Shown: positions 2,683 through 29,896, numbered from the stretch's first letter. The stretch: DNA of 64,000 nucleotides from an uncultured Fibrobacterota bacterium (GCA_963753345.1 CAVWBU010000035.1:161302-225301), one strand, 5' to 3'. Program-made: numbers and translations. Notes: generated from the letters alone by a model not told the origin.

Positions 2683-2700
2683 GCTTCTTCTCTGTGTCTT

Positions 2701-3759: not shown

Positions 3760-3832
3760 AATGGTTCCTTTGAAAAAATTGGTCTGCAGGGGCACCTCTC
3801 AAAAATGGCATTTCGCAGGGCAGGGGAGCACG

Positions 3833-6004: not shown

Positions 6005-6028
6005 GGAAGTCTCCTTATGTATGATAGA

Positions 6029-8185: not shown

Positions 8186-8196
8186 TGCCGGTCCTT

Positions 8197-10840: not shown

Positions 10841-12430
<1,590 letters not shown>

Positions 12431-12445
12431 TAATAAAGAGAAAAA

Positions 12446-12607
12446 TTGGGCGTTTCCCTCGCCCTCGTAAAGACTCAGGCTCGGGTCGGCCCTCCTTCCG
12501 GTCTCGGCCTTCGGCCTCGGGCCGCCACGGCCCTATGCCGCGGTAGCGGCGGGTCCGGGCGGCATCCCGCTTTGGCGGGACCTCCAGTCCTGCCTAACGC
12601 GCGGGCA
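12446..12607 (+). repeat. Repeat A copy 1 (structured ~160 nt element)
   Basis: ttgggcgtttccc..gggtcggccctccttccggtctcggccttcggcctcgggccgcc..gggcggc..cctccagtcctgcctaacgcgc; homologous to five other copies. Confidence 0.9.
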
Positions 12608-12665
12608 TCGGATAGTGTGCCGGTGACCTCAAGGTCGGCAGGGAGAAGCGACTGTTTGGAGCGTG

Positions 12666-12866
12666 CAAAGGGAATCCCAATTGGCGCGAGAAATACTTGT
12701 TGACTGAATAGATTCCCTATGCCGCGCGCCAGGCAGGACTGCAAGGTGCGCTGGAGCGCATTGCCGCCTGACCACGGCCCGCAGGGCCCTCGTGGCAGGC
12801 GGCAACGAGGCCTTGTGCCGAGCCTGGAAGGAGGGCCGCCGCCGCAAAGCGGCGGGGCGCCCATCT
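12666..12866 (-). repeat. Repeat A copy 2 with 3' tail
   Basis: rc agatgggcgccccgccgctttgcggcggcggccctccttcc..gccgcctgccacgagggccctgcgggccgtggtcaggcggc..cagtcctgcctggcgcgcggca, plus tail aatctattcagtcaac..gcgccaat shared with copies 5 and 6. Confidence 0.9.
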
Positions 12867-12994
12867 CTTTATTTATTTAGCCTTTTATCCACTTCTTCCT
12901 CCGGAATATTCTTGACATCAAACCATACATATCTTATTTCTATATCCTGATAGCCCATCATTCCCTTTTCCGCTTTTCTGTGGGAGGACTGCAT

Positions 12995-13897
12995 ATGAAA
13001 AGACCGGTACTACTGGGTTCCCTCGCCTTAAGCGTTATATTTCTTGTCGGCGGATGCGGCGTAAGCCAGCGCGCCATCGACGACGCCCAGGGCCGCATCA
13101 ACGCGCTCAAAACAAAAGGCGTTCCGGACAGCTCCCTTTCCGATGCCGTAAAGTACCTGTACGGTGCGACGTATGCAAAGGAAAAAGACGACAAGACCCT
13201 TGCCAGAAAATCGCTCGATTCGGCGCGGATACTCATTGCGCAGTCCGAAGCGCAGTACTCGGAAAATGCCGCGCGGCTCAAGCCCTACAGCGACTCGGTG
13301 ATCGGCGTCCTCACCAACGCTAAGTCCAAGTTCACGGGCATGCAGCTCAAGGCCCTTGACAGCGCCCTTGCGGTGATCGACGGCTTTGTCCAGAAGAACT
13401 GGATCTACCAGATCGAAGACAACTGCAACAAAGCGGTTGCACTGCTGCCCACGCTCAAGTTCAACGAAGACCGGGCAAAGGAACTCAAAGAAAGGCTGCC
13501 GGGCGTGTGGGTGTGCACTAACACCACCAAGAGCGACGCCGACAAGGCCGTCCACGCGGTGGAGACGAAGACGTTCACGTTCGGCAAGGACGGCAAGGTT
13601 ACCCTCGTGGAAACCAAGAAAGGCCAGAGCGCTAAGAACCTCAAGGAAGACTGGGAGTTCGACTCGTTCGGCTCCTGGGACTGCCGCGGCGACACCATCC
13701 ATATCTTTGTGGACCGTTTCGCCTGCAAGCGCCAGAACTTCGAGACCCTTCTCGAAAAAGACAACAAGAAGACGTGGGAAAAGAAGTCCGAAAAGACCTA
13801 CGATTCCCTCATCACCGACCACAGCCAGGACCGGTGGGTGCCCTTCAGCGGAGAGGGCGGAATGGCGGAGGATTTCAAGCAGCAGAAGAAGTTCTGA
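12995..13897 (+). CDS. Hypothetical lipoprotein
   Basis: MKRPVLLGSLALSVIFLVGGC lipobox, ggagga RBS, host-like codon usage. Confidence 0.8.
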   Translation: MKRPVLLGSLALSVIFLVGGCGVSQRAIDDAQGRINALKTKGVPDSSLSDAVKYLYGATYAKEKDDKTLARKSLDSARILIAQSEAQYSENAARLKPYSDSVIGVLTNAKSKFTGMQLKALDSALAVIDGFVQKNWIYQIEDNCNKAVALLPTLKFNEDRAKELKERLPGVWVCTNTTKSDADKAVHAVETKTFTFGKDGKVTLVETKKGQSAKNLKEDWEFDSFGSWDCRGDTIHIFVDRFACKRQNFETLLEKDNKKTWEKKSEKTYDSLITDHSQDRWVPFSGEGGMAEDFKQQKKF

Positions 13898-13936
13898 TAA
13901 TAAGTTCTTTCGTATATCTTTTATTAGTTTGATTTG

Positions 13937-13976
13937 TAAAGGCGCTCTACGAAAATAGAGCGCCTTTAGTTTTTTT
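13937..13976 (+). terminator. Intrinsic terminator
   Basis: 13 bp stem taaaggcgctcta/tagagcgccttta followed by a T-run. Confidence 0.85.
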
Positions 13977-14035
13977 ACTTTTAAGATTTATACATGGGTG
14001 GAAGTCCAGCCTGTCTCAAAACTCAAGAGAAGATC

Positions 14036-14171
14036 TGGGCGCCCCGCCGAAGACGGCGGCGGCCGTCCTTCCGGTCTCGGCCTTCGGCCTCGGGCTGCCT
14101 GCCACGAGGGCCCTGCGGGCCGTGGTCAGGCAGCACCGCACTTTGGCGCGGCCTCCAGTCCTGCCTGGCGC
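14036..14171 (+). repeat. Repeat A copy 3
   Basis: tgggcgccccgccgaagacggcggcggccgtccttccggtctcggccttcggcctcgggctgcctgccacgagggccctgcgggccgtggtcaggcagc..cctccagtcctgcctggcgc. Confidence 0.9.
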
Positions 14172-14423
14172 AAATACCACCATTCGGGTATCAGGTGAAT
14201 TTCACTATTCCGCTTGCGCAAGACCATATCTTCCGCAACTTGTCAACCTGCGCAACCAATACTGCGTTGTGGCGGCACCCACGAGCTATAGGTGACAAAA
14301 GATTCAATTTCGGTTTTTTTCGTCATCAGCGCCGAACCTGAGGCCGGAGGATAGTCCCTCGTGCTGTCCGAGCCGGGGCCCCACGAACGAGGGATCAGGC
14401 GACGCCGTTTGTTGTCTGAAGCT

Positions 14424-15788
14424 TTACCTGGCGAGAACGAATCTGCCGGTGCAGAAATGCCCGTCGATCGCGGTGATATGCAACAAATAGAGGCCTTTTG
14501 AAAGCGATTTTGTTGAAATTGTCAATAATTCGTCTGATGGAGATAAACTTTCAGAATACACTTTTCTTCCGTTGACGGCAAACAGCTCCACGCTGATCAA
14601 ACCCTGATTCCGCAGCTTGGGCAATCTGATCGACAGAAACCCCCTTTGCGAATTGAGCACAGAGAGCCCCAAGTCAGAGCTTGTGTTTATCATGCGGTCC
14701 TTAACTTCCATGGGAGGAACCGTTGCAAAGTACGGCCCTCCGTCACAAACAACGAGTTGGCCGTTTCCATAAGCGGAAGAGTAAAACTCAATAGAAGAAG
14801 GAGGGTTTGGGTCCCGATGCCAGACTGCCCCGTCTGAAGAATAGAGTAAGATGCCGGTTGTATTTGTACCTAAGTCCCCCTGTGACCCGGCCGCCACGAA
14901 CATGCCGTTTTCAAAATTTATGGAACGAAAAATCGTTAGAGAGAGGGAATCGCTTTTAGTCCATACGACCCCGTCGGTCGACCTTAACATATAGGAATAC
15001 AACAGTCCGCCGCCGGACCCTCCTGCGACAAAGCAATTGTTTCCGTATGCAACCGATAGCAGGCTGCCGCCCTGGTTGGGCGGCGGCGCAGAGATACCCG
15101 ACGCTCTATTTGTCCAATTGATGGCATCAGGGGATGTTAGAATCACACCATTGTTTCCAACAACGACATATAGGCCTTTGCCATAGCATACGGCGTTAAA
15201 CATATAGGAACTGGAATCGACAGTACTCCAAACCAAGCCGTCCTGAGAAACCCCCATATACCTTGGGCCCACTGCTACAAATTGACCGTTGCCATACATG
15301 ACAGATATGAAACGTGAAATCTGAAGGTTGTTTCCCGTCAGCATGACGGGCTGCATATCCGGCTCCCGGGCTGCAAATACCGCCCCCTGGGAATTGAACT
15401 TTACCTGTTCGCTGCCTACCGCAACGAACAAACTATCTCCGTAAACAACGGAATAAAGGCCGCAGTCAGTGAGACTGTAACCAAAACAAGTGTCGTTGCC
15501 CCCGAAGCTTCTCAATTCCCAGGTAATGCCGTCGGAAGAGGTAAGCATCGCGCTGATAGTAATGGATCCATTTGCTCCATTATAATTGCTAACACCATAA
15601 TCCCCAACAGCAAGAAATCGCCCATTGCCAAATGTAACGGAGTTGATGTGAAAGCTTCCGGGATATCCCGGAGGAGGTATCAATGCGGAGAGATCGGGTA
15701 GAACGCCTTTTTGCCAGTTATATTGACCGAAACAAAGGAAAGAAATCACGTATATGAACATTGTCGTCTTCGCAAGAATATTTTTCAT
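14424..15788 (-). CDS. Secreted beta-propeller (BNR/YVTN-like repeats) with T9SS type A-like C-terminal domain
   Basis: Signal peptide; repeats of V.YGNG.FVAVG...S.DG..W; C-terminus VELFAVNGRKV...LSKGLYLLHI. Visibly lower GC than flanks. Confidence 0.8.
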   Translation of the reverse strand: MKNILAKTTMFIYVISFLCFGQYNWQKGVLPDLSALIPPPGYPGSFHINSVTFGNGRFLAVGDYGVSNYNGANGSITISAMLTSSDGITWELRSFGGNDTCFGYSLTDCGLYSVVYGDSLFVAVGSEQVKFNSQGAVFAAREPDMQPVMLTGNNLQISRFISVMYGNGQFVAVGPRYMGVSQDGLVWSTVDSSSYMFNAVCYGKGLYVVVGNNGVILTSPDAINWTNRASGISAPPPNQGGSLLSVAYGNNCFVAGGSGGGLLYSYMLRSTDGVVWTKSDSLSLTIFRSINFENGMFVAAGSQGDLGTNTTGILLYSSDGAVWHRDPNPPSSIEFYSSAYGNGQLVVCDGGPYFATVPPMEVKDRMINTSSDLGLSVLNSQRGFLSIRLPKLRNQGLISVELFAVNGRKVYSESLSPSDELLTISTKSLSKGLYLLHITAIDGHFCTGRFVLAR

Positions 15789-16167
15789 TGTCTGCTCCCA
15801 CTCGTTAGTCGGTTTCGCTCACCCTGCTCCCATCATCCCTAATTATACTTAATTTATGGTCACAAAGTTGAACCATCACTAAGATTTCGTATACTATTGG
15901 AATACGGCAAGATTGCTTTTGGGTCCTATTTCGTAGACATTTGTTGAAAGGAATTGGTACTTTCCCTCTGCTTTGCATTGGGGCAGGCTGTTTAAAGAGT
16001 CGCTCTTACGGCGTCCATGGTTCGACACTCTTCGTTAGACTTCGGCGTAGGTGCTCACCGCGAACGGCGATTGTAGAAGACGACAGTGGAGAATTTTCTG
16101 TGTCAGTCGCCTATGGGTCTGATTCCTAATCTGCTTGGCGGAACATTGGATTGTGCAAATTCCCCTC

Positions 16168-16320
16168 TGCCAAGCGTTAGGGGCGACTGGAGGCCGCGCT
16201 GGAGCGTGGTGCCGCCCGGACCCGGCCGCTACCGCGGCTTAGGGCCAGGCGGCCCGAGGCCAGAGCCCGAGACCGGAGGGAGAACCGACCGCGTCCTCAT
16301 GGACGCGGGAACGCCCATCT
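16168..16320 (-). repeat. Repeat A copy 4
   Basis: rc agatgggcgttcccgcgtccatgaggacgcggtcggttctccctccggtctcggg..gccgcctggccctaagccgcggtagcggccgggtccgggcggc..cctccagtcgcccctaacgc. Confidence 0.9.
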
Positions 16321-16336
16321 GAAGTAATAACTCTAT

Positions 16337-16921
16337 TTACTTCTCTCTTTCCAACTGTCTTATCCCGTCAAGCAGATATTGCACCGCCGACGCGCCGGTG
16401 AAAAACGCCGCGGCGCCGAGCATCCATGCGAGCGGGGCCGCGGGCAGGCCGAAAAGCACCCACAGGATTGATGTGCCCTGGAGGAACGTGGTGATTTTGC
16501 CGAGCATCCTGGGCTGCACTCTCACGCTGCCCGTGATGCTCTGGATGATGAGCACGCCGAGAACAAGAATGGCGTCGCGGCTGATTGCAACGAGAGCGAA
16601 CCATACGGGAAGGTGGGGGACAAATGCTTTCTCGGCGCTGTGGCCGGACAGAAGGATGAGGGCCGAGATCAGGGCCGCCTTGTCGGCAAGCGGGTCGAGC
16701 AGCGTGCCAAGGGCCGAGATTTCCCGCCGCATTCGGGCAAGGTACCCGTCCACTGCGTCAAGGAGGAAAATGCCGAGAAATACGGCGAGGCCTGTCCATC
16801 GGAGAATCATGTGCGGCTCGCCCTTTGCCACGCTCATCGCATAGTAGAGGATAGCAAGGACGAACAGGGGAACGGCGAAGATCCGGGCAATGGTGATTCT
16901 GTTTGCCAATGTCAAGGGCAT
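16337..16921 (-). CDS. pgsA: CDP-alcohol phosphatidyltransferase (PgsA-like)
   Basis: TLANRITIAR, DAVDGYLAR...GTLLDPLADK, SRD, LGKITT motifs. Confidence 0.85.
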   Translation of the reverse strand: MPLTLANRITIARIFAVPLFVLAILYYAMSVAKGEPHMILRWTGLAVFLGIFLLDAVDGYLARMRREISALGTLLDPLADKAALISALILLSGHSAEKAFVPHLPVWFALVAISRDAILVLGVLIIQSITGSVRVQPRMLGKITTFLQGTSILWVLFGLPAAPLAWMLGAAAFFTGASAVQYLLDGIRQLEREK

Positions 16922-17030
16922 GATTGGCGCGCGGTTCCGGGAGGAAGTGGCGGACCGGCGGTATGATCAATATAATAATTTGTTGCGTCAGGGGTAAAAT
17001 CGCATTTGTTAAGAAAAGGAAATTATCATG

Positions 17031-17222
17031 TGGGGGAGGTATACTCCGTCGGGTACTTCCAAGGGTCGTCCTCCTCGCTTCAGCCCGGCGCGCCTCCTCA
17101 TGTTGTGGCTCATTGTCAATGGCGCACCGGTCTTCCGCTACCCCCTCCTGGGTGCACCCCTTGAAGGGACAGTTGCAAGATCAAACACCTGTGCGGGGGC
17201 ACCCGTGGAGAGCAGTTGAGAA
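17031..17222 (+). repeat. Repeat B copy 1
   Basis: Shares cccctcctgggtgcacccc..gcaaga.tcaa.cacctgtg.gggggcaccc..ggagagc.gttga with rc of 29724-29803; head gggggaggtatactcc. Confidence 0.8.
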
Positions 17223-17255
17223 ATTCAAAGAGAAATAGATGATTCTATTCCATGA

Positions 17256-17450
17256 GGATTCGGGGTGGCGGGAGCAATAATCTTGACTGAGTAGACTTCT
17301 TCTGCCGCGCGTTAGGCCGGAACGGAGGTCGCGCTGGAGCGCGATGCTGCCTGACCACGGCCCGCAGGGCCTTTGTGGCAGGCAGCCCGAGGCCGAAGGC
17401 CGAGACCGGAGCGAGGGCCGCCCGCGTCCCATGGACGCGGGAACGGCCAA
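17256..17450 (-). repeat. Repeat A copy 5 with 3' tail
   Basis: rc ttggccgttcccgcgtccatgggacgcgggcggccctcgctccggtctcggccttcggcctcgggctgcctgccacaaaggccctgcgggccgtggtcaggcagc..ggcctaacgcgcggca, plus tail agtctactcagtcaag. Confidence 0.9.
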
Positions 17451-17466
17451 GTCTTTTCTTTGACTT

Positions 17467-17943
17467 TTAAGTATTATCAGGTAGCCCTAGATCTATATCC
17501 CTCGACATCACAATAGCATCATCACCATCGTCAGAATAGTATTTCCTGCGTATCCAGCGGATTTCGAATCCGAGTTTGACGTACAAATCAAAGGCAAGAC
17601 GGTTTTTCGACCGGACTTCAAGGTGGACCGATTCTGCGCCGCGGCGGCGGGCCGCGTCTGCCGCTGCCGCCAGGAGGCGGCGCGCCACGCCTCGGCGCCG
17701 GTGGTCGGGATGAACGGCGATGGTGTTGATCTCAAGTTCGTCTGCGGCGAGAACGGCGAACACGAAGCCGCATGCCGTGCCGTCTTCGCGCTGCGCAACC
17801 AGATTGACGGCGTTGTCGGCGGAAAGCTCCGAGGAAAATGCGGCGGCCGACCAGGTGACCGTGCGGCACGAATGTTCTATGTCAAGGATGGCGGGAAGAT
17901 CGCACTTCACGGCGGGCCTGATCGTCGAAAGGCGGTGACTCAC
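17467..17943 (-). CDS. rimI: Ribosomal protein S18 alanine N-acetyltransferase
   Basis: GNAT motifs IAVHPDHRRRGVA, LEVRSKN, LYVKLGF, RRKYYSD..DDAIVM. Confidence 0.9.
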   Translation of the reverse strand: MSHRLSTIRPAVKCDLPAILDIEHSCRTVTWSAAAFSSELSADNAVNLVAQREDGTACGFVFAVLAADELEINTIAVHPDHRRRGVARRLLAAAADAARRRGAESVHLEVRSKNRLAFDLYVKLGFEIRWIRRKYYSDDGDDAIVMSRDIDLGLPDNT

Positions 17944-18938
17944 GGCACATCCTCCGTCAGGTCGTTGTCGCGCCGCGCTTCGTCAACCATCCGCGTGAGC
18001 CTCGCCACCACTGCATTGACGCCGCGGCCGGTGACCGCCGACATGGAACGCCAGCCCTTCGGCAGCGCAAGGCCCTTTGTTCCTTCGACAAGGTCGCTTT
18101 TCGACAAGATGAAAAGCGCGGGCTTCTGCGCAAGAAGCGGGCTGTACGCGGAAAGCTCGCTCACCAGAAGCGCGGCCTCGGCCCTCGGGTCCGGGGAATC
18201 GGCCGGGACCAGAATCGCAAGTACGGCCGTGCGTTCGATATGCTTGAGGAACGTGATGCCGAGCCCTTTTCCAAGGTGCGAACCTTCGATGAGGCCCGGA
18301 ATGTCGGCTGCGACAAACGACCGGTAGCCTTTGCATCTGACAATTCCCAGGTATGGCTGGGTCGTGGTGAATGGATACGCCGCGATCTTCGGCCGCGCCG
18401 AGGAGATGCTCGAAAGAAACGTGGACTTGCCTGCGTTGGGGCGTCCCACGATTCCCACGTCGGCCAGCATCTTGAGCACGAGCCGCAGCTTTCTGTATTG
18501 GCCGTCTTTTCCCTTCTCGGCATGGTCGGGCAGGGGGTTTGTGCGGGTCTTGAGCTCTGCGTTTCCGCGGCCGCCCGCTCCGCCCCGAGCTGCGCAGAAT
18601 GATTGCGTATCGTCAACCGCATCGAAAAGGAGGTCGCCCGAATCCGCGTCATACACCACCGTGCCGAGCGGGATCGGCACCATGATGTCTTCGGCGTCCT
18701 TGCCGTGCTTGTTGCCGCCTTTGCCGTTTGCGCCGCTTTGGGCCCTGCAGTGGCGGTGGAAGTGAAGGTCTTGAAGCGTGCGGAGATGATGGGAGCCCCT
18801 GAGAAAAATGCTCCCGCCCCTGCCGCCGCTGCCGCCGCTCGGGCCGCCCCGCGGCCGGTATTTTTCGCGGAGATAGGCGAAGCAGCCGTCGCCGCCGCTG
18901 CCCGCCTGTGCTTCGATGGTTGTTTCGTCGATGAACAT
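17940..18938 (-). CDS. obgE: GTPase Obg
   Basis: MFIDE, Gly-rich Obg fold, GRPNAGKST, YPFTT, DIPGLIEG. Confidence 0.95.
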   Translation of the reverse strand: MFIDETTIEAQAGSGGDGCFAYLREKYRPRGGPSGGSGGRGGSIFLRGSHHLRTLQDLHFHRHCRAQSGANGKGGNKHGKDAEDIMVPIPLGTVVYDADSGDLLFDAVDDTQSFCAARGGAGGRGNAELKTRTNPLPDHAEKGKDGQYRKLRLVLKMLADVGIVGRPNAGKSTFLSSISSARPKIAAYPFTTTQPYLGIVRCKGYRSFVAADIPGLIEGSHLGKGLGITFLKHIERTAVLAILVPADSPDPRAEAALLVSELSAYSPLLAQKPALFILSKSDLVEGTKGLALPKGWRSMSAVTGRGVNAVVARLTRMVDEARRDNDLTEDVP

Positions 18939-18959
18939 TGGAGAGTCCGGTGGAAGAGG

Positions 18960-19092
18960 AAGTTTGCAAAGTTACAAAGTAACAAAGTCAAGAGAAGTTA
19001 CAAAGTGACAAAGTAGCAAAGTGACAAAATCAAGATTCCAGCCTGACCGTTCTGAACTCTGTCACTCTGTCACTTTGTTACTCTTGCACTTT
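18960..19092. repeat. Two facing octamer arrays (AAAGTNAC-like)
   Basis: + aaagttac aaagtaac ... aaagtgac aaagtagc aaagtgac; inverted ctctgtca ctctgtca ctttgtta ctcttgca, which overlaps the upstream gene's stop. Confidence 0.75.
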
Positions 19093-19359
19093 CTTGCTCT
19101 TCCCCGTGTCGGCTGGCGGCGGGGTTGCGGGGGCGGCCGGAGCATCGTTCTTTGCCTGCTTCTTGTACGAATCGGAACGGTAGTCGGTGCTGTAGAAGCC
19201 GCTTCCCTTGAACAGGAATCCCCCGCCGGAGGAAATCAGTCGCTTTACCGCGCCGCCGCAGCCCGGTTTTTTGCATAGGGTGAGCGGCGGTTCCGAGATA
19301 CGCTGGTATTCCTCAAAGATGAGCCCGCATTTTTCGCATTCGTATTCGTACGTCGGCAT
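19078..19359 (-). CDS. FmdB-family zinc ribbon regulatory protein
   Basis: MPTYEYECEKCG..C...CGG..KRLIS...FKGSGFYSTDY. Confidence 0.9.
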   Translation of the reverse strand: MPTYEYECEKCGLIFEEYQRISEPPLTLCKKPGCGGAVKRLISSGGGFLFKGSGFYSTDYRSDSYKKQAKNDAPAAPATPPPADTGKSKKVQE

Positions 19360-19455
19360 GGAGAAACTGCTCCGAGGCGATGAAAATCAGTCAATCGTTG
19401 AGATATGCTTGGGTGCAAAGAACGCCCCCAAATTACATCATGTTGGAGAAACAGG

Positions 19456-20784
19456 TCAACGCGCCGCGGGCACGGCGGTGAGGTCGTAATCAGATGCGGA
19501 GATGATTTTCACCGGAACAATGGAGCCGATCCTTGCGTTTCCCCGGGGAAGGAGGACCGTGCCGTCGACCTCGGGCGCGTCCCATACGGTTCTGCCTTCA
19601 AGAGCCGCCCGCTTTTTTTTTGCGACCCCCGGGCTTCCGTGCAACACCGCAACCCCGTGTTCCTGAGCAGGCCCGTCCACGATTATGTCAAGCGTTTTCC
19701 CCACGAGCGAGGCGCACCGGGCCGCGCTTATCCCGCGCTGGAGCGACATAATGCGTTCGCACCTGAAAAGCGCGGTTCGGTTCAGCGGCCTTTTCGGGAG
19801 TGAAAACGCGCGCGTTCCCTCTTCCGGTGAAAACGGAAATACGCCGAGGCGCTCGAACCGCGTCTCCTCCACAAAGTCAAGCAATTCGCGGAACTGCCGC
19901 TCGGTTTCGCCGGGATACCCGGCAATGAACGTGGTGCGTATGGCGGCATCGGACATTGCGGTGCGGATGCTCCTGATGAGGGCGCGGACGCCTTTCGACA
20001 GCGGCCGGCGGTTCATGGACCGCAGAATGTCGTCGCTGATGTGCTGGAGTGGAACGTCGAAGTAGGGAAGAAGCCGCTTTTCTTGCGCGAAAAGATACAG
20101 CAGTTCGTCGCTTACGAGCTGCGGATGCAGATACATGAGCCGGATCCACGGGAATTCCGTTTCGGCAAGAAAATGCTTGAGGAGCCGCACAAGCGAGCCG
20201 CCGCGGTCGCATCCGTAGGACGTAGTGTCCTGGGAAACCAGGATGCATTCCTTTACGCCGCGGGAAAACAGCCAGCGCGCCTCGCAAATAATATCCTTTT
20301 CAGCACGGCTTTTATACGGTCCGCGGATGGCGGGAATGGCGCAGAAACTGCACTGCCGCGAACATCCTTCTGCTATCTTGAGATACTGGGTGGCGCGGGG
20401 CGGAAAAAGCACGCGCCCGGCCGGGGCTTTGCGGTGCGCGCCGAACGACGACGCAAGCACCGCGGGCCAGTCGTGCACGCCGAGCCACGCGTCAACCTCG
20501 GGGAAATGAACCCTCGCTTGGTTCCTGAAGCGCTCCGAAAAACAGCCGGCGACCGCGAGCGTGGCGCAGACGCCGGATTTCTTGAAGCGCGCCATGGTCA
20601 GGATGGCTTCTATCGCCTCTTGCCGGGCTTCCTTGATAAATGCGCATGTGTTGACGAGGATCGTATTCGCGCGGGAAAAATCGGACACCGCAGTATACCC
20701 CGATGCACAGAGCCGGGCGAGCATGCGCTCGCCGTCTATCTGGTTCTTGCTGCATCCGAGGTTCAACAGTGCAACGGTTCGCAT
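19456..20784 (-). CDS. rimO: Ribosomal protein S12 methylthiotransferase
   Basis: LGCSKNQIDGE, NTCAFI, radical SAM KIAEGCSRQCSFCAIP, C-terminal TRAM with DAPEVDG. Confidence 0.93.
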   Translation of the reverse strand: MRTVALLNLGCSKNQIDGERMLARLCASGYTAVSDFSRANTILVNTCAFIKEARQEAIEAILTMARFKKSGVCATLAVAGCFSERFRNQARVHFPEVDAWLGVHDWPAVLASSFGAHRKAPAGRVLFPPRATQYLKIAEGCSRQCSFCAIPAIRGPYKSRAEKDIICEARWLFSRGVKECILVSQDTTSYGCDRGGSLVRLLKHFLAETEFPWIRLMYLHPQLVSDELLYLFAQEKRLLPYFDVPLQHISDDILRSMNRRPLSKGVRALIRSIRTAMSDAAIRTTFIAGYPGETERQFRELLDFVEETRFERLGVFPFSPEEGTRAFSLPKRPLNRTALFRCERIMSLQRGISAARCASLVGKTLDIIVDGPAQEHGVAVLHGSPGVAKKKRAALEGRTVWDAPEVDGTVLLPRGNARIGSIVPVKIISASDYDLTAVPAAR

Positions 20785-20835
20785 GCGTGGCCCTCAACAA
20801 ATCGTTGTGTTACAGAAGAAAATTCTGCAGTATTC

Positions 20836-20866
20836 AAAAAAAACGGGCCGGTCGCGCCGGCCCGTT
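20836..20866 (-). terminator. Intrinsic terminator
   Basis: rc aacgggccgg cgcga ccggcccgtt followed by a T-run, downstream of the SPOR gene. Confidence 0.8.
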
Positions 20867-20889
20867 ACAACCTTTGTCGGATTACGGTT

Positions 20890-21906: not shown

Positions 21907-22095
21907 ATATCCTCCTTGAAGGGAAACCGTATCCTCCGCCCCGCTTCCTCTCGCGCATCATCGGCGGCTGCGCGGCAAAAAAAGTATTTGCGCGCGCCCG
22001 GACGCAATGGTTTACAATATGCGCCGGTTTACAATATATATAGAATCTACAATACTGTAACCCAAAAATCCATACTTTTTTCCAACGCGGGCCGG

Positions 22096-23229
22096 TTACT
22101 TTCCGCCTGGCAAGCCGTCAAGCAGCCTTCGCGCCTCGACCGCCTGCGGCGTTTCCGGAAAATCCGCAACCACTTTCTTGAGAGTCCGGATGGCGGCGTC
22201 GATATCGCCTTTCCTGAGAAGGTCCAGCGCGGAGCGCGAGAGCTGCGCGGCTTTTTCCAGGTTCTGCGCGTAGCGGTCGGGATTGAGCGTCTGCTTGAGC
22301 GACGGAGGCACGGCATTGAGCCGGTAGGGGCCGTAGGTCATCAGGAGGCACTGTGGTCCGGCATTCGGGTTTGCGGCGTTGAAATAGGAGATCTTTCTCG
22401 TGTCAAATACCATATACCTGCCGTCCCATCGGTATGTCGCCTCGAGCGTGAGCGAGCGGACGCCGTTCACCGCGAGGGTGAGGCCTGCGGGGAGCGTAAC
22501 CCCGTCGAACACGGCGTAGGTGAAGGTGTATGAAAGGATTGAACTGTCGACGGGCGGTTTTCTGGTCTGGTCGGCGGCAAAGGTTCTGCTGTTCTTGCGC
22601 AGGGTGAGTTCGTACACGCAGCGGGTTGCGCTGTCCATCACGCACACGAGGCTGCTCAGCCACGATTCCCGGACAAACGCGCCCATGTCATCGTACGAGT
22701 AGGCGAAGTACTTTCCTTTGGGCGCAAGCTCGAACCTGAGCGTCGCCCTGTCGCCCTGTCGCCCCGGCGCGCACGTGATGGTCGTCTCATCGGCGATGGT
22801 GCGGAACCGGTCTTCCTGCCGGTACCTGAGCACGGAGGAAACCACGATATCGATCATTTCCCCCGGATTGAGAACGCCCGAAAGCAGGTCGCGCGTTTCG
22901 AGGGAATAGCTGCGGTTTGCAAGCAGGAGGTGGAACTGATGGTTTTTGTCAAGGACTTCCTCGTAGCGGGGCGCTTCGAGGTTGACGCTGCGAAGGGTCT
23001 TTTCCATCTCGTCGGCAATGTCGCCTGACAGCGTTACCGGCACGGTGTACTGCGGCGGCATGCGGGAAAAAACCATACGATCGGGTGACTGCACATTGCG
23101 GAGTTTTTCATAGGCATCCGGAAGCGGCGCCTTACGGCCCGCGGCGGCGCTCCACAGGAGCGCAAGGCAGAACGCGGCGGCAGGAACCGCGGAACCTAAC
23201 GACACAACGTGATCAAAACCGATTTTCAC
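22096..23229 (-). CDS. Hypothetical exported protein with C-terminal TPR-like helix pair
   Basis: GTG start overlaps the hisB stop; signal-like N-terminus; ends ..GDIDAAIRTLKKVVADFPETPQAVEARRLL. Confidence 0.7.
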   Translation of the reverse strand: MKIGFDHVVSLGSAVPAAAFCLALLWSAAAGRKAPLPDAYEKLRNVQSPDRMVFSRMPPQYTVPVTLSGDIADEMEKTLRSVNLEAPRYEEVLDKNHQFHLLLANRSYSLETRDLLSGVLNPGEMIDIVVSSVLRYRQEDRFRTIADETTITCAPGRQGDRATLRFELAPKGKYFAYSYDDMGAFVRESWLSSLVCVMDSATRCVYELTLRKNSRTFAADQTRKPPVDSSILSYTFTYAVFDGVTLPAGLTLAVNGVRSLTLEATYRWDGRYMVFDTRKISYFNAANPNAGPQCLLMTYGPYRLNAVPPSLKQTLNPDRYAQNLEKAAQLSRSALDLLRKGDIDAAIRTLKKVVADFPETPQAVEARRLLDGLPGGK

Positions 23230-23819
23230 ACGAGCGTTCCCTTTGAAGAGGGGATGTCGCGGCCGGCCCTTGGATTTATGCCGCAGGCCTGCGACAGGGC
23301 TCGGCCGAAGGCCTTGAAGACCGCTTCGAGGGAGTGGTGGCTGTTCCTGCCGCGCAGCAGATCGACATGCATGGTGAACAGGCCATGATCGGTGAACGCC
23401 TTGAAGAAGTCGTGCGCGAGGTCGCATTCGAAATCGTTGACATGCGTGGTTGCAAGTTCCACATTGTAAATAAGGTTCGGCCTCCCGCTCAGGTCCACGC
23501 ACACGCGCGCGAGCGATTCGTCCATGGGAACGTGGCTTTCGCCGAAGCGCACGATGCCCGCGTGGTCGCCGAGCGCTTTATGGAGCGCCTGCCCAAGGCA
23601 GATGCCGATGTCCTCGGCGCTGTGGTGGAAATCCACGTCGGTGTCGCCGGCGCAGGCGATGGTGCAGTCGAACAGCCCGTGCTTGGCGAAGAGCGTGAGC
23701 ATGTGGTCCATGAAGGCGTTGCCGCTCGCCGCCTTCGATACGCCGGAGCCGTCGATGGACAGTTCGCAGCTGATGTCGGTCTCCTTTGTCTTCCTTTTTA
23801 TCAAGGTTTTTCTTGCCAT
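23226..23819 (-). CDS. hisB: Imidazoleglycerol-phosphate dehydratase
   Basis: RKTKETDI, DHML, DFHHSAEDIG, PMDESL, GRNSHHSLEAVFKA, PSSKG. Confidence 0.96.
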   Translation of the reverse strand: MARKTLIKRKTKETDISCELSIDGSGVSKAASGNAFMDHMLTLFAKHGLFDCTIACAGDTDVDFHHSAEDIGICLGQALHKALGDHAGIVRFGESHVPMDESLARVCVDLSGRPNLIYNVELATTHVNDFECDLAHDFFKAFTDHGLFTMHVDLLRGRNSHHSLEAVFKAFGRALSQACGINPRAGRDIPSSKGTLV

Positions 23820-23853
23820 GGTCGGTCCTTTCCCGTGCCTGTGCACGCGCCAA

Positions 23854-24937
23854 TTAGGCCGCGGCGGTTTTGAAAAAGTCCTTCACCGCGGATTCAAACG
23901 CCTTTGTTTCATCGTCCGTCCCCACGTTGACGCGGAGGCAGTTGTCGAGCATCTGATACTGCGACACGTCGCGTACCAGGATGTTTTTTTTCTTGAGGAA
24001 CGAAAAGAGCTCGTTCTTGCGTTTTGTCCGCATCAGGATGAAATTCGCCGCGCTCGGATACACCGCGTCGAACGGCATTGACGCCAGAAACGCAAACAGC
24101 GAATCGCGCCTGTCCGAAAGCTCCTGTACCCGGGGCCTGAGCTTGTCTGCATTGTCCAGAAGCACCCCGGCCACCTGTTCGGAAAAAAAGTTGATGTTGT
24201 ACGGGAGCTTGATCTTATACATTTCCTGCACGACGTCGGGCGTGCCCAGCATATAGCCGAGCCGCAGGCCCGCACCAGAAAACGCCTTTGAAAAGGTCCG
24301 CGTGATGATCAAGTTGGGATTTTCTTTAAGCAGCGGCACGGCGCTGTACCCGCCGAATTCCACATACGCCTGGTCGAGCACGAGAAAACCGGTGTGCGCC
24401 TTGAGGATCGCCCTGATGTCGGATTCGCTTAGCGAGCAGCCGGTCGGATTGTTGGGCGAGCACAGCACCATAAGCGAGCGCGGGTACTGCGACGCGGCCT
24501 CGCAGATCTTTTTCACGTTGAACGTAAGGTCGTTGGTGAGAAACACGGTGCGCTCAACGGCGCCGAGGCCGGTCGCGAGCAGCCGGTACACGGTGAAGGT
24601 TGGTTGACAAAGAATAACATCCTTCCCCTGTCCCGCGAGCGCAAGCAGCAGCACGAGCAGCATCTCGTTCGATCCGTTGCCCACCATGATCCCGCCGTCC
24701 GGCACTCCGCTGTAGGCCGACAGCTTCGCCTTGAGCGCCTCCGGGACAAAGTTCGGGTACCGGTTGAACGGCCGCTTCCGGCAGAATGCCGCGATCTCGT
24801 CCTTGATGGCAGGCCGGAAGATCGTACGGGTTCTCGTTCTGGTTGAGCTTGATGTCCGCGGCCTCGGGTTCGAGATGGTACCGGGTGAGGTTGCGGATTC
24901 GTTCGTTGACAAGAAGGAGTGAGTCGCTCAGGTTCAT
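23854..24937 (-). CDS. hisC: Histidinol-phosphate aminotransferase, one-base frameshift near 24812-24817
   Basis: N-terminus IKLNQNENPYD in one frame; NRYP, GNGSNE, SPNNPTG, RTFSKAFSGAGLRLGY in the next. Confidence 0.9.
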
Positions 24938-25091
24938 GAGTGCTTTTTGATTGCCGATGCAAGGGCGATGATTTTCCGCGGCCACATTTCCGTACGTCGC
25001 GCCGGCCCCGGACTTGATATTCATTCATTTACAATATAAATTAGTACGGGTTGGTGCGGGTACAGGCTGTAGAAACAGGGTGAGAATGAGG

Positions 25092-26747
25092 CTATTTGAC
25101 CACCGTAAACCCCTTCACCGTCTCGCTTTTCTCGTAAATCGCTTTTGCAAAGTACCTGCCAGCCGCATGGCTGGGAAGCCAGACAGCTTGATTATTACAG
25201 ATAGACAAATTCTCCAGCAACTGGCCTCGCATGTCGAACACACGAAGTGATGATGTTCCGGCAGGAAGCGAGAAGCGGACTTTTTTGGAAGAGAACTGGT
25301 TGATGGAAATATCATTTTGTGAATGATTCGTTTGACGGGAAACCGGGTTGGCAGTTTTGGTCGGATAGTCTTTGCTGTTCACGAAGATATTAAATGTCAA
25401 GGTGTCCTTATTGCCGAAATCGTCGGACACGAGGAATTCAACATGGTCCATATATGAGGAATCTGTTGTCGGTGTCCAGGATATTGTTCCGCCCACGGAG
25501 ACAGTCATGCCGGAGGGGACTTTGAGGGGAGTATAGCCGTGGTTGATCGAGTCGCCGGAGACGGGGATCTTGAAAGTAAAGGAAAAGGACTTGTAGGCGT
25601 AGCGGTCGGATATGATTGAGAGGAGGCAGGCAAGATCTCCGCGACCCGAAGTAGGTGCTCCCCGTCGCGATGAAATTGCCATCACTTGTCGGAGTGATGT
25701 CATCTGCATAAACGTCACTGGTGACTGTTTGGGTCCATACCGTATCGCCATCAGGGGTTATCTTGAAAATGTATGCCTTTGAAGATCCCGTGCCAATAGA
25801 CTCCGTATACGCTGTGACAATAAAGTTTCCGTCCGTACTTGACGTGATTGATTTCGCGCCGGCTACGCCTATACCAGTGAATGTTCTGGTCCATACCGTA
25901 TCGCCGTTGGGTTTGATTTTCAGAAGATAGGCCTTTGAAAATCCGGTGTCATACGGGAATGCATGCCCTGCGACAATAAAGTTTCCATCTGCATCTGCCG
26001 TGATTGCCCAAGCGACATTAAAGTCGCTCCGGCCGTATTTTCTTGTCCACAGCGTATCGCCGTTTGGGGTGACCTTGAGCAGGCAAACCTGGGAATACCC
26101 GTTTCCGTTTGTGGTTGATCCGGCAATAATGAAATTTCCTTCAGGTGCCGGCGCGATGGCACAGCCCGTGTTAAAGTCGCCAAGGCTGTATTTTTTAGTC
26201 CACAGCGTGTCGCCGTTCGGGGTGACCTTGAGAAGGTAAACATCAGAAGGTTCTCCGTTGAAAGAGAGGCCTCGCCCGCGACAAGGAAATTTCCGTCGGG
26301 CGTGGCGTTGACGGCAAAAGCAGTCCCTCCGACGGGGATTGTTCTTGTCCATATCGTATCACCATTTGAATTGATTTTCAGAATATATACATAGGGCTGT
26401 TCGCCGTATTTACTTGTTGTCCCGGCAACGATGAATTTTCCGTCTCCGGCCGCTGCAATGCCATTTGCGCAGGCTTCCCCTGTGCCGTTATATGTTTTGG
26501 TCCATACCGGATTGCCGAAGGCGTCGGTTTTGAGCAGGTACATTTTCATGGGGCTGCCGGTTGTATAGGTGTTCCCCGCGCCAACCAGGTGGCCGTCCGC
26601 AGTCGCTGAAATGGCGGAAAGCGCACAGTAATCCTCCGGAGTGCTGCAGGTTCTCTTCCAGTATGTCTGGCCTGCACAGTCACTCGCCAATGTCAACGCC
26701 GCAAGCGCGAACATCACCATCTTTATTGCCGATTTTTTGTAAGTCAT
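25092..26747 (-). pseudogene. Secreted repeat beta-propeller with Ig-like and T9SS-like C-terminal domains, split by two frameshifts (~26265, ~25645)
   Basis: Repeats YLLK..PNGDT.WT..Y / DGNFIVAG continue across three frames; VPSGMTV...TISWTP Ig-like segment; LRVFDMRGQLL...AGRYFAK C-terminus. Could be an intact gene with assembly indels. Confidence 0.7.
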
Positions 26748-26770
26748 AAAGAACTCCTTGTTCCTCCGTT

Positions 26771-26870
26771 GACCTCACCCCTGTTTCCCCTCTCCGATAG
26801 GAGAGGGGATGAAGGTGGCTATTTTACTCTCCCCTCTCCGGGCGGAGAGGGGAGAGGGAGGGGTGAGGTC
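26771..26870. repeat. ~100 bp composite palindrome (CCCCTCTCC..GGAGAGGGG family)
   Basis: 11 bp terminal inverted repeats gacctcacccc/ggggtgaggtc enclosing two cccctctcc/ggagagggg hairpins. Confidence 0.85.
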
Positions 26871-26955
26871 TATCTTGATTTCACACCCAATAATATATGT
26901 AAGGAAACCCGAAAGTGAAGCTTGCCGTAGAGAAAGTGTTTTCTTGCAGAAAATA

Positions 26956-27756
26956 CTAGCGGTTCCCCTCTCCCCGTGGGAGAGGGGTCGGGGGTGAGGT
27001 CCCGAACGCCCTGTTAAAATTCCTCTCCGTCGCCGCGGCGAATTCCTCTTCGTCCATCTTCCTGATCTCCGCGATCTTCTTTCCCACAAGGGCCACCCAT
27101 GCAGGCTGATTCGGCTTCCCGCGGTGGGGAACAGGGGCGAGATAGGGCGTGTCGGTTTCAATGAGGATCGAAGCGAGGGGGGCGCAAGCGACAACTGAAG
27201 CGAGTGAGGATTTTGCGAACGTGACGATGCCCGAGAACGAGACAAAATACCCCGCGTCGGCAAGTGCCTTCAGGGTCGTTGCATCGCCGGTGTAGCAGTG
27301 GAACACGGCCCGCTTCACGCCCGCGGCTGCGCACATGTCAAGCGCGCGGTGCTCGCAGCCGCGTGAGTGTACGATGACCGGTTTGTCGAGCCGTTTGGCA
27401 AGTGCAAGGTGCTTTTCGAAAAAGGATGATTGCAGTTCGAAAGAAGGATAGGCGGGGTTTGTTGCGTCAATGCCGGTTTCGCCGACCGCGATGACGCGAG
27501 GATCGGCGAACAGTGCAGCAAGTTGCTCTTCCCACAACGGTGGTGCATCGTTCACGTCAAACGGTGAAATCCCCACCGCGGCAAACAGGCCTGGATGGCC
27601 GGCGCATTGCGAAATGACGGTGTTGCTTGACGAAAGGGATGTTGCGGCATTGAGGATGCGGTGCACGCCGTTTGCGCGGGCATGATCAACGGTTGCTTTG
27701 AGCGCGGCGTCATCGCAACGGTAAAGGTGGGCGTGTGAGTCGGTCCACTGGATCAT
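26956..27756 (-). CDS. tatD: TatD family DNase
   Basis: DSHAHL, VGETGID, VHSR, FHCYTG, ETDTPYLAPVPHRGKPNQP. Confidence 0.93.
   Translation of the reverse strand: MIQWTDSHAHLYRCDDAALKATVDHARANGVHRILNAATSLSSSNTVISQCAGHPGLFAAVGISPFDVNDAPPLWEEQLAALFADPRVIAVGETGIDATNPAYPSFELQSSFFEKHLALAKRLDKPVIVHSRGCEHRALDMCAAAGVKRAVFHCYTGDATTLKALADAGYFVSFSGIVTFAKSSLASVVACAPLASILIETDTPYLAPVPHRGKPNQPAWVALVGKKIAEIRKMDEEEFAAATERNFNRAFGTSPPTPLPRGEGNR
26964..27001. repeat. Half copy of the same palindrome inside the tatD 3' end
   Basis: tcccctctccccgtgggagaggggtcgggggtgaggtc; encodes ..TSPPTPLPRGEG in TatD. Confidence 0.8.
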
Positions 27757-27768
27757 GGCCCGATTGCG

Positions 27769-28755
27769 TCAGGTCCGGTTCTTGAACACGGCGGCCCACT
27801 TTGCCAGGTTCCAGATTTCGGGTTTCTTCATGCCGCGCCCGATCTTGAAAATCACCACGTCTTTGGCCTCGATATGGAAGGGCTTGCCGTTGAAGGTATA
27901 CTCGAGAAGGCTGTTGTTGCCAACGCAGACGTCAAAACTGTCGCGGGCGACGCACCGCTTGGTCTGGTTTGCCTTGAGCCAGTTCTTCCAGGACACGCCA
28001 TCCGAAAAGATCTGGATCCACACCGAGTCTTTTTTCGCTTTTATTTCCAGCGAAAGAATTCCGCGTCCCATGGAAATGCTGTCAACGGCTATTGCCGCGG
28101 GAGAGCCGGTGTCCGGCGCAGTCGCAGCCTTGGGTGCGGGGATGGGGGCGGGCGCGGGGATGGGGGAGGGCACGGCGGCGACCGTGTCGTGCCGCACCAT
28201 TTTTCCGATCAAGCTGTCTTCCGCCGCGTCTGTCGGGGCGGCCTTATGAACGGCCGGTTTTGAAGTATCGGTGCGCGCCGAAACCGCGGCCGGAGCCGCG
28301 CGGGGAGCAATCCCCGGCGCACCGGCCTTCCTGTTTGCAAAGAAGCTTACAACGCCGAGAACGACGATGACGCCCACGATGATCATCCACGGCTTGAGCT
28401 CCTTTTTTCCGGGCTTTTTTGCCATGGTGATGACGATTTGCGTGTCGCTGCCTTTGCGGAAATTTTCGTCGTGGATGCCGCGCTCCTCATAGAATTTTTT
28501 GAGGACCGCCTCGGGATCGAGGAGAAGATACTTGGCAAGCGAGCGAAGGTAGACGCGTATGTACGGGTCGGCAGGGAGGTTGGTGTAATCGTTCACTTCG
28601 AGCGAACGCACGTACTGGACGCTCAGCTTGAGGTCCTTGGCGATGGTTTCGAGGGCAATGCGCCGGGCAATGCGTTCTCTGCGGAGGATGTCGCCCACGC
28701 GCTCGGGCCCGGTCTCCTCTTTCGCCTGCCCGCCGGCTTCATTTTCTTCAGACAT
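27769..28755 (-). CDS. rodZ: RodZ-like helix-turn-helix membrane protein
   Basis: GDILRRER..LETIAKDLKL..YVRSLE...YIRVYLRSLAKYL HTH, one TM helix, C-terminal SVWIQIFSDG...VGN domain. Confidence 0.8.
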   Translation of the reverse strand: MSEENEAGGQAKEETGPERVGDILRRERIARRIALETIAKDLKLSVQYVRSLEVNDYTNLPADPYIRVYLRSLAKYLLLDPEAVLKKFYEERGIHDENFRKGSDTQIVITMAKKPGKKELKPWMIIVGVIVVLGVVSFFANRKAGAPGIAPRAAPAAVSARTDTSKPAVHKAAPTDAAEDSLIGKMVRHDTVAAVPSPIPAPAPIPAPKAATAPDTGSPAAIAVDSISMGRGILSLEIKAKKDSVWIQIFSDGVSWKNWLKANQTKRCVARDSFDVCVGNNSLLEYTFNGKPFHIEAKDVVIFKIGRGMKKPEIWNLAKWAAVFKNRT

Positions 28756-29359
28756 TCGGTGCGCCCTTTCGATCGGCGTATGACGCAAACAGATCAATGG
28801 TTTTTCTCACCGGCAGCCCCACCACATTGTAGTAGCAGCCGTCAATCCTGTCGATAAATGCCATGGCCCTGCCCTGGATGGCATACGCTCCGGCTTTGTC
28901 GCAATACTCCCCGCGGCTGAGGTACTCGTCGATTTCCCATTGCGCAAGGGACCTGAACTGCACCGCGGTGGTCTCGATAGCGCCGGCCGCAAACCCGCAT
29001 TCGCCGCACACGAGCGCCACCGACGTCAGCACCGTGTGCCTGCGGCCGGAAAGCCGCCTGAGCATGGTCGCGGCGTCGCTCTTGGTCGTCGGCTTCCCGA
29101 GTGCCACCCCGTCAATTGAGACGACGGTGTCCGCGCCGAGCACCAGCGCGTCGGGTCGCGATACCGACACCGATTGCGCCTTGGCAACGGCAAGTGCCGC
29201 AAGCTCTTTGTCAAGCTGACGCCCGGAGAAAAAGTCGGCCTCATTTTCCACTGACGGTCGCACGACATCAAACTCGAAACCCAGGGCCGAGAGAATCTCG
29301 CGCCGGCGAGGGGATTGCGAAGCAAGAATAATGCGCCTATCGGGATTTCTCCACACCAT
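28748..29359 (-). CDS. maf: Maf nucleoside triphosphate pyrophosphatase
   Basis: ILASQSPRRREIL, GADTVV, LGKP, DKAGAYAIQG, NVVGLP. Confidence 0.95.
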   Translation of the reverse strand: MVWRNPDRRIILASQSPRRREILSALGFEFDVVRPSVENEADFFSGRQLDKELAALAVAKAQSVSVSRPDALVLGADTVVSIDGVALGKPTTKSDAATMLRRLSGRRHTVLTSVALVCGECGFAAGAIETTAVQFRSLAQWEIDEYLSRGEYCDKAGAYAIQGRAMAFIDRIDGCYYNVVGLPVRKTIDLFASYADRKGAPNV

Positions 29360-29439
29360 GGTAAATATACTTATCCTTCGGCATGCGCGGCAATGGGCCG
29401 TAGTTCTAGTGGGGTTATATGAAAATCAAAAATAACAAA

Positions 29440-29651
29440 TTGGGCGTTCCCCTCGGCCTCGCATGGGCGCGGCCTCGGGTCGGTTCTCCCTCCGGTCTCG
29501 TCCTTCGTTCTCGGGCCGCCTCGGCCCTATGGCCCACAGGGCCGGGTCCGGGCGGCACCGCGCTCTGGCGCGGCCTCCGGTCGCCCCTAACGCGCGGCAG
29601 TGGAAATCTATTCTGTCAACTTCTTTTTTTGCGCCAATCGGCATCCGCTTG
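29440..29651 (+). repeat. Repeat A copy 6 with 3' tail
   Basis: ttgggcgttcccctcggcc..ggcctcgggtcggttctccctccggtctcg..gccgcctcggccc..gggtccgggcggc..cctccggtcgcccctaacgcgcggca, plus aatctattctgtcaac..gcgccaatcggcatcc. Confidence 0.9.
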
Positions 29652-29656
29652 AAATC

Positions 29657-29728
29657 TACTGTCAACTGCCAACTGTTTACGCCTTTTCTTCTCAATCTCT
29701 CAACTGCTCAACTTCTCAACTATTCAAC
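29657..29728. repeat. Short heptamer and octamer tandem arrays between A6 and B2
   Basis: ctgtcaa ctgccaa ctgttta, then ttctcaat ctctcaac tgctcaac ttctcaac tattcaac. Confidence 0.7.
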
Positions 29729-29896
29729 CGCTCTCCGTGGGTGCCCCCACACAGGTGCTTGATTCTTGCCACTACCTTCACTTGGGGTGCACCCAGGAGG
29801 GGATTGCGCCCGCCCAACAGGAAGGGCGGAAAGCGCCGCAGGACACCGCAGGCCGAAGGCCGAGGAGGCCGGAGCGAGGGGGATACTTCCCCTCTC
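29724..29896 (-). repeat. Repeat B copy 2
   Basis: rc gaggggaagtatccccctcgctccggcctcctcggccttcggcctgcgg..cccctcctgggtgcacccc..cacctgtgtgggggcacccacggagagcggttga; the middle part resembles repeat A. Confidence 0.8.

Follow-up and report, generated by a model that had tools for sequence, protein, structure and literature searches.

A 64,000-nucleotide stretch of DNA from an uncultured Fibrobacterota bacterium (GCA_963753345.1 CAVWBU010000035.1:161302-225301; the whole stretch is called the window here) carries six copies of an intergenic repeat, Repeat A, at 12446-29651, and these six are all of its matches in the window. Our results indicate that selection acts on the fold of this repeat, in a manner visible across lineages of copies rather than in the decay of resident copies. 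The copies themselves are lost, replaced and inverted on the time scale on which species split. Because of this turnover, combined with selection on the fold at the level of lineages, a selfish non-autonomous element suits the data better than a host RNA at each site. We give about an even chance to the view that Repeat A is an uncatalogued, non-autonomous intergenic repeat of ~150 nt, akin to the REP, BIME and BOX elements, with a fold that is needed for its propagation.

The family is large. An nhmmer profile made from the six copies found 402 matches in the contigs of this genome, of which 355 are near full length, on both strands (193 plus and 209 minus) and at about one copy per 11 kb; the assembly (4.5 Mb in 55 contigs) is 94% complete, with a contamination estimate of 4.8%. 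The 352 copies extracted represent 344 distinct sequences. A structure predicted by RNAalifold from a sequence-only alignment of these 344, with which a search for mutually informative columns in the same alignment agrees, comprises 50 modelled pairs in about 8 or 9 helices within a module of 128 to 229 nt (median, 153 nt). An outer closing helix, whose two strands are the two ends of the module, is accompanied by a side hairpin (P1), three more short long-range helix segments and a three-way junction (P2, P3 and P4); the hairpins stack on a long-range helix in four parts. The long-range segments are separated by pyrimidine-rich internal loops, whose letters are the best conserved. Internally deleted mini-copies of A also occur, in which the closing helix and first hairpin are kept and the three-way junction is gone; in these the inner branches look to have been excised where they begin (e.g., upstream of C26:71279 and at the syntenic site of L091:3608-3794).

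Many of the modelled pairs occur in two or three matched states among the 344 copies. Pair 24-152 is UA in 230 and CG in 38, pair 51-141 is UA in 180 and CG in 140, pair 81-113 is CG in 117 and GC in 97, pair 87-106 is CG in 232 and AU in 81, and pair 119-134 is UA in 112 and CG in 87. The 50-pair structure from the genome-wide set was converted into a covariance model, R1 (Infernal). Among 128 copies from the window and 20 dense genome stretches, 92.0% of the cells pair, as against 78.3% after shuffling and 34 to 46% with slid partners, and double changes were found at 37 of the 50 pairs (826 cells, with 270 expected). These figures are biased towards the model because the alignment was fitted to R1; the sequence-only alignment used for RNAalifold is an independent check. 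The six window copies alone have 93.9% of cells paired (83.1% shuffled; slid partners, 30 to 46%) and a change on both sides at 18 of the 50 pairs, where 8.8 were expected. For neither set did any of 500 shuffles reach the observed values of pairing or double change. Further pair types in the six copies were not above the shuffles (22 versus 21.8; 291 of 500). The first hairpin, P1, is hypervariable, with 93 distinct sequences among 127 copies and lengths of 10 to 76 nt; a stem of at least 5 bp is nevertheless present in 115 of the 127.

The fold extends well beyond this genome. R1 gave at least 120 matches in each of four of the five other species of the genus; the fifth (G003, 99% complete) and two further genera of the family had none. 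Of 151 genomes sampled from the phylum, 10 had a match at an expectation value (E) of up to 1e-5, among them five from outside the genus with 1 to 8 full-length matches each, which are weak relatives. In 19 distant copies from six genomes outside the genus, with 52 to 71% G+C, 88.1% of the cells pair (62.3% shuffled) and 41 of the 50 pairs are double-changed. Because these distant copies still pair with changed letters, the fold is older than the genus and has outlasted the replacement of nearly all the letters in its stems. Internal-loop letters, by comparison, persist out to the distant relatives. The neighbours of 14 copies in the low-copy genomes were housekeeping genes.

Individual copies are far less durable. 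We compared 41 contigs of a sister species (G001), with coding DNA ~90% identical, with our genome. For the 39 of its 74 copies with mappable flanks, the syntenic site held a full copy in the same orientation in 16 cases, a partial copy in 5, a copy on the opposite strand only in 8 and none in 10. The positional partner was never the nearest relative in the 15 same-orientation pairs: it ranked between 9th and 334th of the 344 and was 69 to 93% identical, while a copy elsewhere in our own genome was 89 to 98% identical. Among the flipped sites, the two clearest cases have a whole composite (A with its downstream companions, described below) inverted between the same flanks, and in a third only a leader and the start of A are inverted. 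This turnover argues that the family was still active once the two species had separated, even though no identical copies turned up at different loci outside duplicated contigs. Within our genome, all four combinations of helix states are found for 41 of 55 pairs of helix-state characters, and hence the helices reassort between copies.

The decay of resident copies has a different character. Across 280 pairs of nearest paralogues, the difference was 6.0% in paired columns, 11.7% in unpaired columns and 21.5% in the tail. Single changes at pairs kept both pairs in 218 of 715 cases (~31%), for which the rough expectation without selection is about one third if transitions are taken to be twice as common as transversions. 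Double changes kept both pairs in 217 of 275 cases. Single stem substitutions look neutral.

The six copies and their attached elements are distributed in the window as follows.

12441-12612, plus strand: Repeat A copy 1, with a long first hairpin followed by a tail of the short-hairpin type (nhmmer; R1, 153.9 bits; sequence).
12712-12870, minus strand: Repeat A copy 2, of the GGGCGCC...TGGCGC subtype, with the long type of tail (R1, 149.3 bits; nhmmer).
13996-14035, plus strand: 5' leader of copy 3, ~40 nt, common to near-identical copies elsewhere.
14030-14172, plus strand: Repeat A copy 3, of the GGGCGCC subtype (R1, 138.4 bits; nhmmer).
16161-16320, minus strand: Repeat A copy 4, starting 17 nt past the stop of a CDP-alcohol phosphatidyltransferase gene (R1, 139.9 bits; nhmmer).
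17296-17456, minus strand: Repeat A copy 5, starting 11 nt past the stop of a GNAT acetyltransferase gene (R1, 170.3 bits, the top R1 score within the searched set).
17032-17295, minus strand: tail of copy 5, short tandem 8-mer tract and B block, which with copy 5 form an A-tract-B composite (sequence; B model).
17032-17213, minus strand: the B block after copy 5; its tandem tract is at 17214-17260.
29434-29607, plus strand: Repeat A copy 6, with a long first hairpin (R1, 146.2 bits; nhmmer).
29598-29895, plus strand: conserved tail of copy 6, 7-8-mer tract (~29650-29729) and B block (~29730-29895).

An earlier note, made from this DNA alone, had held that structure rather than sequence is kept in these copies, and covariation in the genome and in distant relatives, together with a hypervariable first hairpin that still pairs, bears this out. 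The details that it listed are readily recovered: the first hairpin differs by copy (a 9-bp stem with a 3-nt loop in copy 5, different 6- to 7-bp hairpins in copies 2 and 3, longer ones in copies 1 and 6), a GGCC-TTCG-type hairpin is present in three copies (1, 3 and 5), the third stem can be read in three matched variants, and the ends match, two copies having GGGCGCC with TGGCGC and four having G(G/C)CGTT with TAACGC. Its inference that selection acts on a folded molecule agrees with ours, while the identity with the Rfam motif Flavo-1 and the link to HUH transposases that it attached to this inference were not supported, as set out below.

Copies 1 and 2 are the left and right halves of a convergent doublet and fill, facing each other, the gap between a protease gene and a lipoprotein gene. 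Both are present in G004, one inverted copy is found in G005 and a disrupted copy 1 in G001; G003 has at this site no copy, and a plain hairpin and T-run of the terminator type after the protease gene. At the loci of G003 (L033) and G005 (L036) that are syntenic to 12430-12905, the lipoprotein gene is preceded by a promoter-like stretch that all the species compared have conserved. The composite of copy 6 ends 26 nt before the stop of a nucleotidyltransferase gene. No transposase domain was found in 48 of the 50 predicted genes of the window or in one extra open reading frame (ORF). Elsewhere in the window, a type VI secretion cluster on the minus strand (1594-8200) encodes a PAAR protein, an ORF with an NAD-glycohydrolase translocation domain, VgrG and two ORFs without a Pfam match, and in-frame tandem repeats with a period of ~153 to 156 nt are present at 25697-26540, minus strand, in ORFs adjoining an ORF with a putative Ig (He_PIG) domain.

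Repeat A often has company. A B block lies downstream of A in 184 of the 355 copies, at a median distance of 102 nt, always on the same strand and never upstream. B, whose model has 288 matches in the genome, is a second structured block of ~170 nt that ends in a short GC hairpin. About 100 B copies are without a full upstream A. A is separated from B by a conserved tail and a tandem 7-8-mer tract, as after copies 5 and 6. The composite so formed, with a median of 433 nt, takes up entire intergenic gaps, with medians of 16 to 28 nt to the flanking stops; a subset has inverted ends of 9 to 13 nt, and the ends of A pair over 5 to 7 bp in the closing helix. A tandem 7-8-mer tract, in both orientations, fills one intergenic gap of our genome in which neither A nor B is present, and hence tracts are independent of the modules. 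Copies within 1 kb of each other are arranged as 26 convergent, 7 tandem and 4 divergent pairs; half of the convergent gaps (quartiles) measure 96 to 103 nt, within a range of 86 to 925 nt. Most of the 366 copies stand singly or head an A-B composite. A predicted gene is overlapped by 29 of the 355 copies. Convergent gaps are enriched, holding 98 of the 314 copies that have a neighbour on each side (31%, with a baseline of 16%).

The module is a discrete unit. In eight inspected near-identical pairs from unrelated loci, near-identity starts a few nucleotides 5' of the 5' strand of the closing helix (in one subtype, at a leader of ~35 nt) and ends at the 3' strand of this helix or within ~10 nt beyond it, and either type of tail can follow one and the same module. 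As near-identity is bounded by the closing helix and the tails are interchangeable, the module is the unit that is copied. The tail was considered as an independent target and rejected: 242 of 253 long-tail matches abut an end of Repeat A, and truncated remnants precede 10 of the remaining 11. Stretches of 1 to 1.8 kb around Repeat A copies are 89 to 99.9% identical between contigs C10/C39, C46/C45/C44, C19/C38, C29/C30, C16/C5 and C19/C13, which suggests a strain mixture or a redundant assembly that slightly inflates the copy counts. Contig C40 (93 kb) is without Repeat A and C27 (353 kb) has only 9 copies, against ~1 per 10 kb elsewhere; these contigs could be foreign or mis-binned DNA, or islands.

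An enzyme that might move Repeat A was sought by domain matches in the genome and in a phyletic panel of five genomes, four with the repeat and G003 without it; five kin genomes are a weak test. Y1_Tnp (PF01797) had no match in our genome and none in its closest relative, which is only 73% complete; congeners had eight (G002), two (G004) and two weak ones (G005). Three sampled Y1 copies of G002 share ~550 bp at 99.8 to 100% identity and are IS200-like elements. At six congener Y1 loci from three genomes, nhmmer found neither A nor B, and the single match to R1, ~1.3 kb away from the weak locus of G005, was itself weak (20.7 bits, E 0.0012). Our genome has one IS91-type Y2 gene, ~5.7 kb from the nearest Repeat A copy and with none within 5 kb. 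Matches to Y2 were found in G000, G002 and G004, to IS110 in G000, G002 and G005, to reverse transcriptase (PF00078) in G002 and G004 (none in our genome), to GIY-YIG in all five genomes and to the integron integrase in all but G002; the TnpB-type domain (PF07282) had no match in any of the five. The integrase match of a chromosomal integron (430.6 bits, cut-off 265) is at C18:31088-32026, and the array of this integron (C18:2287-32026; L204, L205 and L207) has at least 15 same-strand repeats of 135 to 170 nt, spaced 0.4 to 2.7 kb and without an Rfam match. The C26 part of the integron (C26:280-292 kb, L206) contains an IS91-type transposase and a DDE transposase. Rfam gave no match at the gathering score over the whole window, and its seven weak rows at E up to 10, from 12300-17600, included none that is relevant. 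A full-text search found no literature on repeats of this lineage.

If Repeat A is a selfish element, the fold would be required when a copy is propagated as a single strand, whether copied, inserted or used as a partner in recombination, and would not be required for a per-copy service to the host. Spread and reshuffling would proceed through both an enzyme that acts in trans on specific structures and ectopic recombination among copies, and effects on neighbouring transcripts would be by-products. Several observations weigh against such a reading. The counts of Y1, Y2, IS110, reverse transcriptase, TnpB-type, GIY-YIG and integron integrase domains fit the presence of the repeat in no case among the five genomes. 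A and B bracket 0.6 to 4 kb in 9 cases, and 9 ORFs from 7 of these (the scan left aside a 607-aa ORF at L040 and all of L045) are ordinary genes with no transposase; an autonomous parent element was thus not among the bracketed ORFs scanned. No target-site duplication was seen at the borders of the eight near-identical pairs or at three filled-versus-empty sites, and these three clearest comparisons gave no clean junction, the intergenic DNA of the two closest species being too diverged. No identical copies were found at different loci besides those on duplicated contigs; the closest copies at unrelated loci are 95 to 98.5% identical, which gives no sign of very recent movement. The gene calls for the genome came from a crude ORF finder. 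The persistence of the repeat at low copy number in other genera would also suit a host function. Lastly, the loop letters are conserved into distant relatives, and nearest paralogues differ in their paired columns at half the rate of the unpaired, so that some constraint on resident copies may exist.

An alternative proposal is that each copy is a working structured RNA of the host within neighbouring transcripts, acting in 3'-end protection, in termination or insulation, or in protein or ribosome binding via its pyrimidine-rich loops (purine-rich on the complement). We consider this unlikely, though by no means negligible. Placement speaks for it in part: a copy with its upstream gene on the same strand starts a median of 21 nt after the stop, and the composite fills gaps to within a few tens of nucleotides of the stops. 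In the gap of copies 1 and 2, moreover, the repeat-free congener and another congener have a hairpin and T-run of the terminator type. A host RNA would also suit the halved variability of paired columns and the survival of fold and loop letters across an order at low copy number. However, there is no preference for the sense strand: the 165 copies in co-directional gaps are 65 sense and 100 antisense, the composite in such gaps is 28 sense and 59 antisense (p 0.001), and divergent gaps hold 51 of the 314 copies. The module is not followed by a T-run, and one congener has no copy at all. In the sister species, the copy at a given site may be missing, incomplete, flipped or of a different subtype, and the rate at which single stem changes break pairs is about that expected if there were no selection.

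The evidence on which strand would be active is contradictory. Wobble counts point to the strand as written, which has 1037 G-U cells versus 193 A-C cells and 3.4 G-U pairs per minimum-free-energy structure versus 2.1 on the complement; this excess stems from about four columns, two of them doubtful in register, and the written strand also has more T than A. Predicted stability and gene orientation point to the complement, which is the more stable in 267 of the 344 copies with RNA parameters and in 292 with DNA parameters. The orientation of copies also correlates with local gene GC skew (odds ratio 0.43, p 0.001), a correlation confounded by gene direction.

A more speculative version of a mobile repeat, which we regard as rather doubtful, is that Repeat A is the recognition platform of a structure-based copy-and-replace system that overwrites and flips intergenic modules in place, by means of a recombinase acting on single strands or of an RNA-templated process, with no relation to the known HUH, DDE, integron and retroelement machineries. 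Such a system would explain why shared sites are occupied by different copies, why composites are inverted and why the best-conserved letters are in unpaired loops.

It is also conceivable, if quite improbable, that the repeat acts as double-stranded or cruciform DNA, in the manner of the Escherichia coli BIMEs, as a platform for a nucleoid or topology protein or as a recombination hotspot, the fold being that of extruded hairpins only. Both strands fold about equally well (-87.1 and -89.8 kcal/mol predicted for copy 5, with a z-score of -4.9 when folded as DNA), either orientation is tolerated, the 26 convergent doublets have a fixed spacing in half of the cases, and recombination between copies is rampant, all of which such a role would accommodate. 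It would not, however, call for the covariation of pairs 90 to 130 nt apart, since the extrusion of local palindromes has no need of them; conserved asymmetric internal loops and bulges persist and are not perfected, and no binding protein can be named from the data.

Could the covariation be a by-product of mutation? Template switching in quasi-palindromes would copy one arm onto the other, and gene conversion would carry whole helices between copies, with no selection on the fold. The free reassortment of helix variants is as this would predict, as are the neutral look of single changes and the finding that pair-preserving double changes are as common as pair-preserving single ones (217 and 218). 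Even so, we think it very unlikely. The 19 copies from other genera have the same 50-pair architecture, with the same loops, bulges and helix lengths, although 41 of the pairs are double-changed; stems show no drift towards perfect palindromes; the first hairpin, for all its range of lengths, remains a hairpin in 115 of 127 copies; and conversion moves variants and cannot create matched ones across 130 nt.

Finally, that Repeat A belongs to Flavo-1 and owes its movement to HUH (Y1) transposases, in the way that RAYTs move REPs, is scarcely credible: its closing helix and hairpins do recall the substrates of single-strand transposases, and Y1 is found in three of five congeners and Y2 in our own genome, with neither in the repeat-free congener, but the Flavo-1 covariance model was not matched (Flavo-1 is not among the weak Rfam rows either, which largely refutes the identity), Y1 is missing from our genome and from its incomplete closest relative, neither the six congener Y1 loci analysed nor our own Y2 gene adjoins the repeat, and Y2 is absent from one repeat-rich congener.

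Interspersed repeats of bacteria are usually simple hairpins, and the mechanism of spread is known for few. A multi-branch fold of ~150 nt that is kept by compensatory change is evidence of the kind usually reserved for functional RNAs, and the copies nonetheless behave as selfish DNA. Because Repeat A combines the two, it is a good case for studying the target of selection in such repeats and the machinery that recognises folds. There are also practical consequences. The modules are a likely reason for assembly breaks in these uncultured bacteria (that of the sister species consists of 570 contigs), and comparative screens will pick them up as false structured-RNA candidates.

Several known systems invite comparison with Repeat A. 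The integron attC site is likewise recognised by shape, has ~60 to 150 nt and lies just behind genes, and our genome has a real integron. In contrast to attC sites, however, copies of Repeat A are dispersed over both strands among housekeeping genes and form no one-way cassette array, and neither the sequence profile nor the first genome-wide R1 search found a copy inside the integron array; the integrase, moreover, is present in the repeat-free congener and missing from one repeat-rich congener. Derivatives of IS200/IS605 elements and TnpB guide RNAs differ in that our genome is without a Y1 or PF07282 match, and retron non-coding RNAs in that it is without a PF00078 reverse transcriptase match. 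The likeness to Flavo-1 consists only of the similarity of termini proposed in the earlier note, with no match at or below the gathering score. [quoted passage not shown] Repeat A departs from MITEs in having no target-site duplication that we could see and no parent insertion sequence that we could find, and its end repeats are only the 5- to 7-bp closing helix, with inverted ends of 9 to 13 bp in a subset of composites.

The closest parallels are the REP, BIME and REPIN elements and the pneumococcal BOX. The former are moved by RAYT (Bertels and Rainey 2011, PMC3116915). They resemble Repeat A in being high-copy, GC-rich, extragenic and hairpin-forming, in standing singly or as inverted doublets at a set spacing, and in being commoner behind convergent genes and patchy among close relatives. 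However, Repeat A is five times longer and has about eight helices with a three-way junction and long-range pairs, where a REP is a single imperfect palindrome of ~20 to 40 nt; it has no RAYT/Y1 gene in its own genome and none adjoining its copies in congeners; and it is often the head of a larger A-tract-B composite. BOX, which Croucher et al. (2011, PMC3049150) treat along with RUP and SPRITE, is judged parasitic, with effects on co-transcribed genes. It is built, like the composite, of short internal units, variable in number, between end modules of two kinds, has an extensive predicted secondary structure, and is limited, like Repeat A, to a few close species. Repeat A has no sequence relation to BOX, its internal units are 7-8-mers, its A module spreads alone and its covariation reaches across an order. 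Repeat A falls outside the size and the partner enzyme that define the REP, BIME, REPIN and BOX families, and it resembles them in lifestyle and in modular build.

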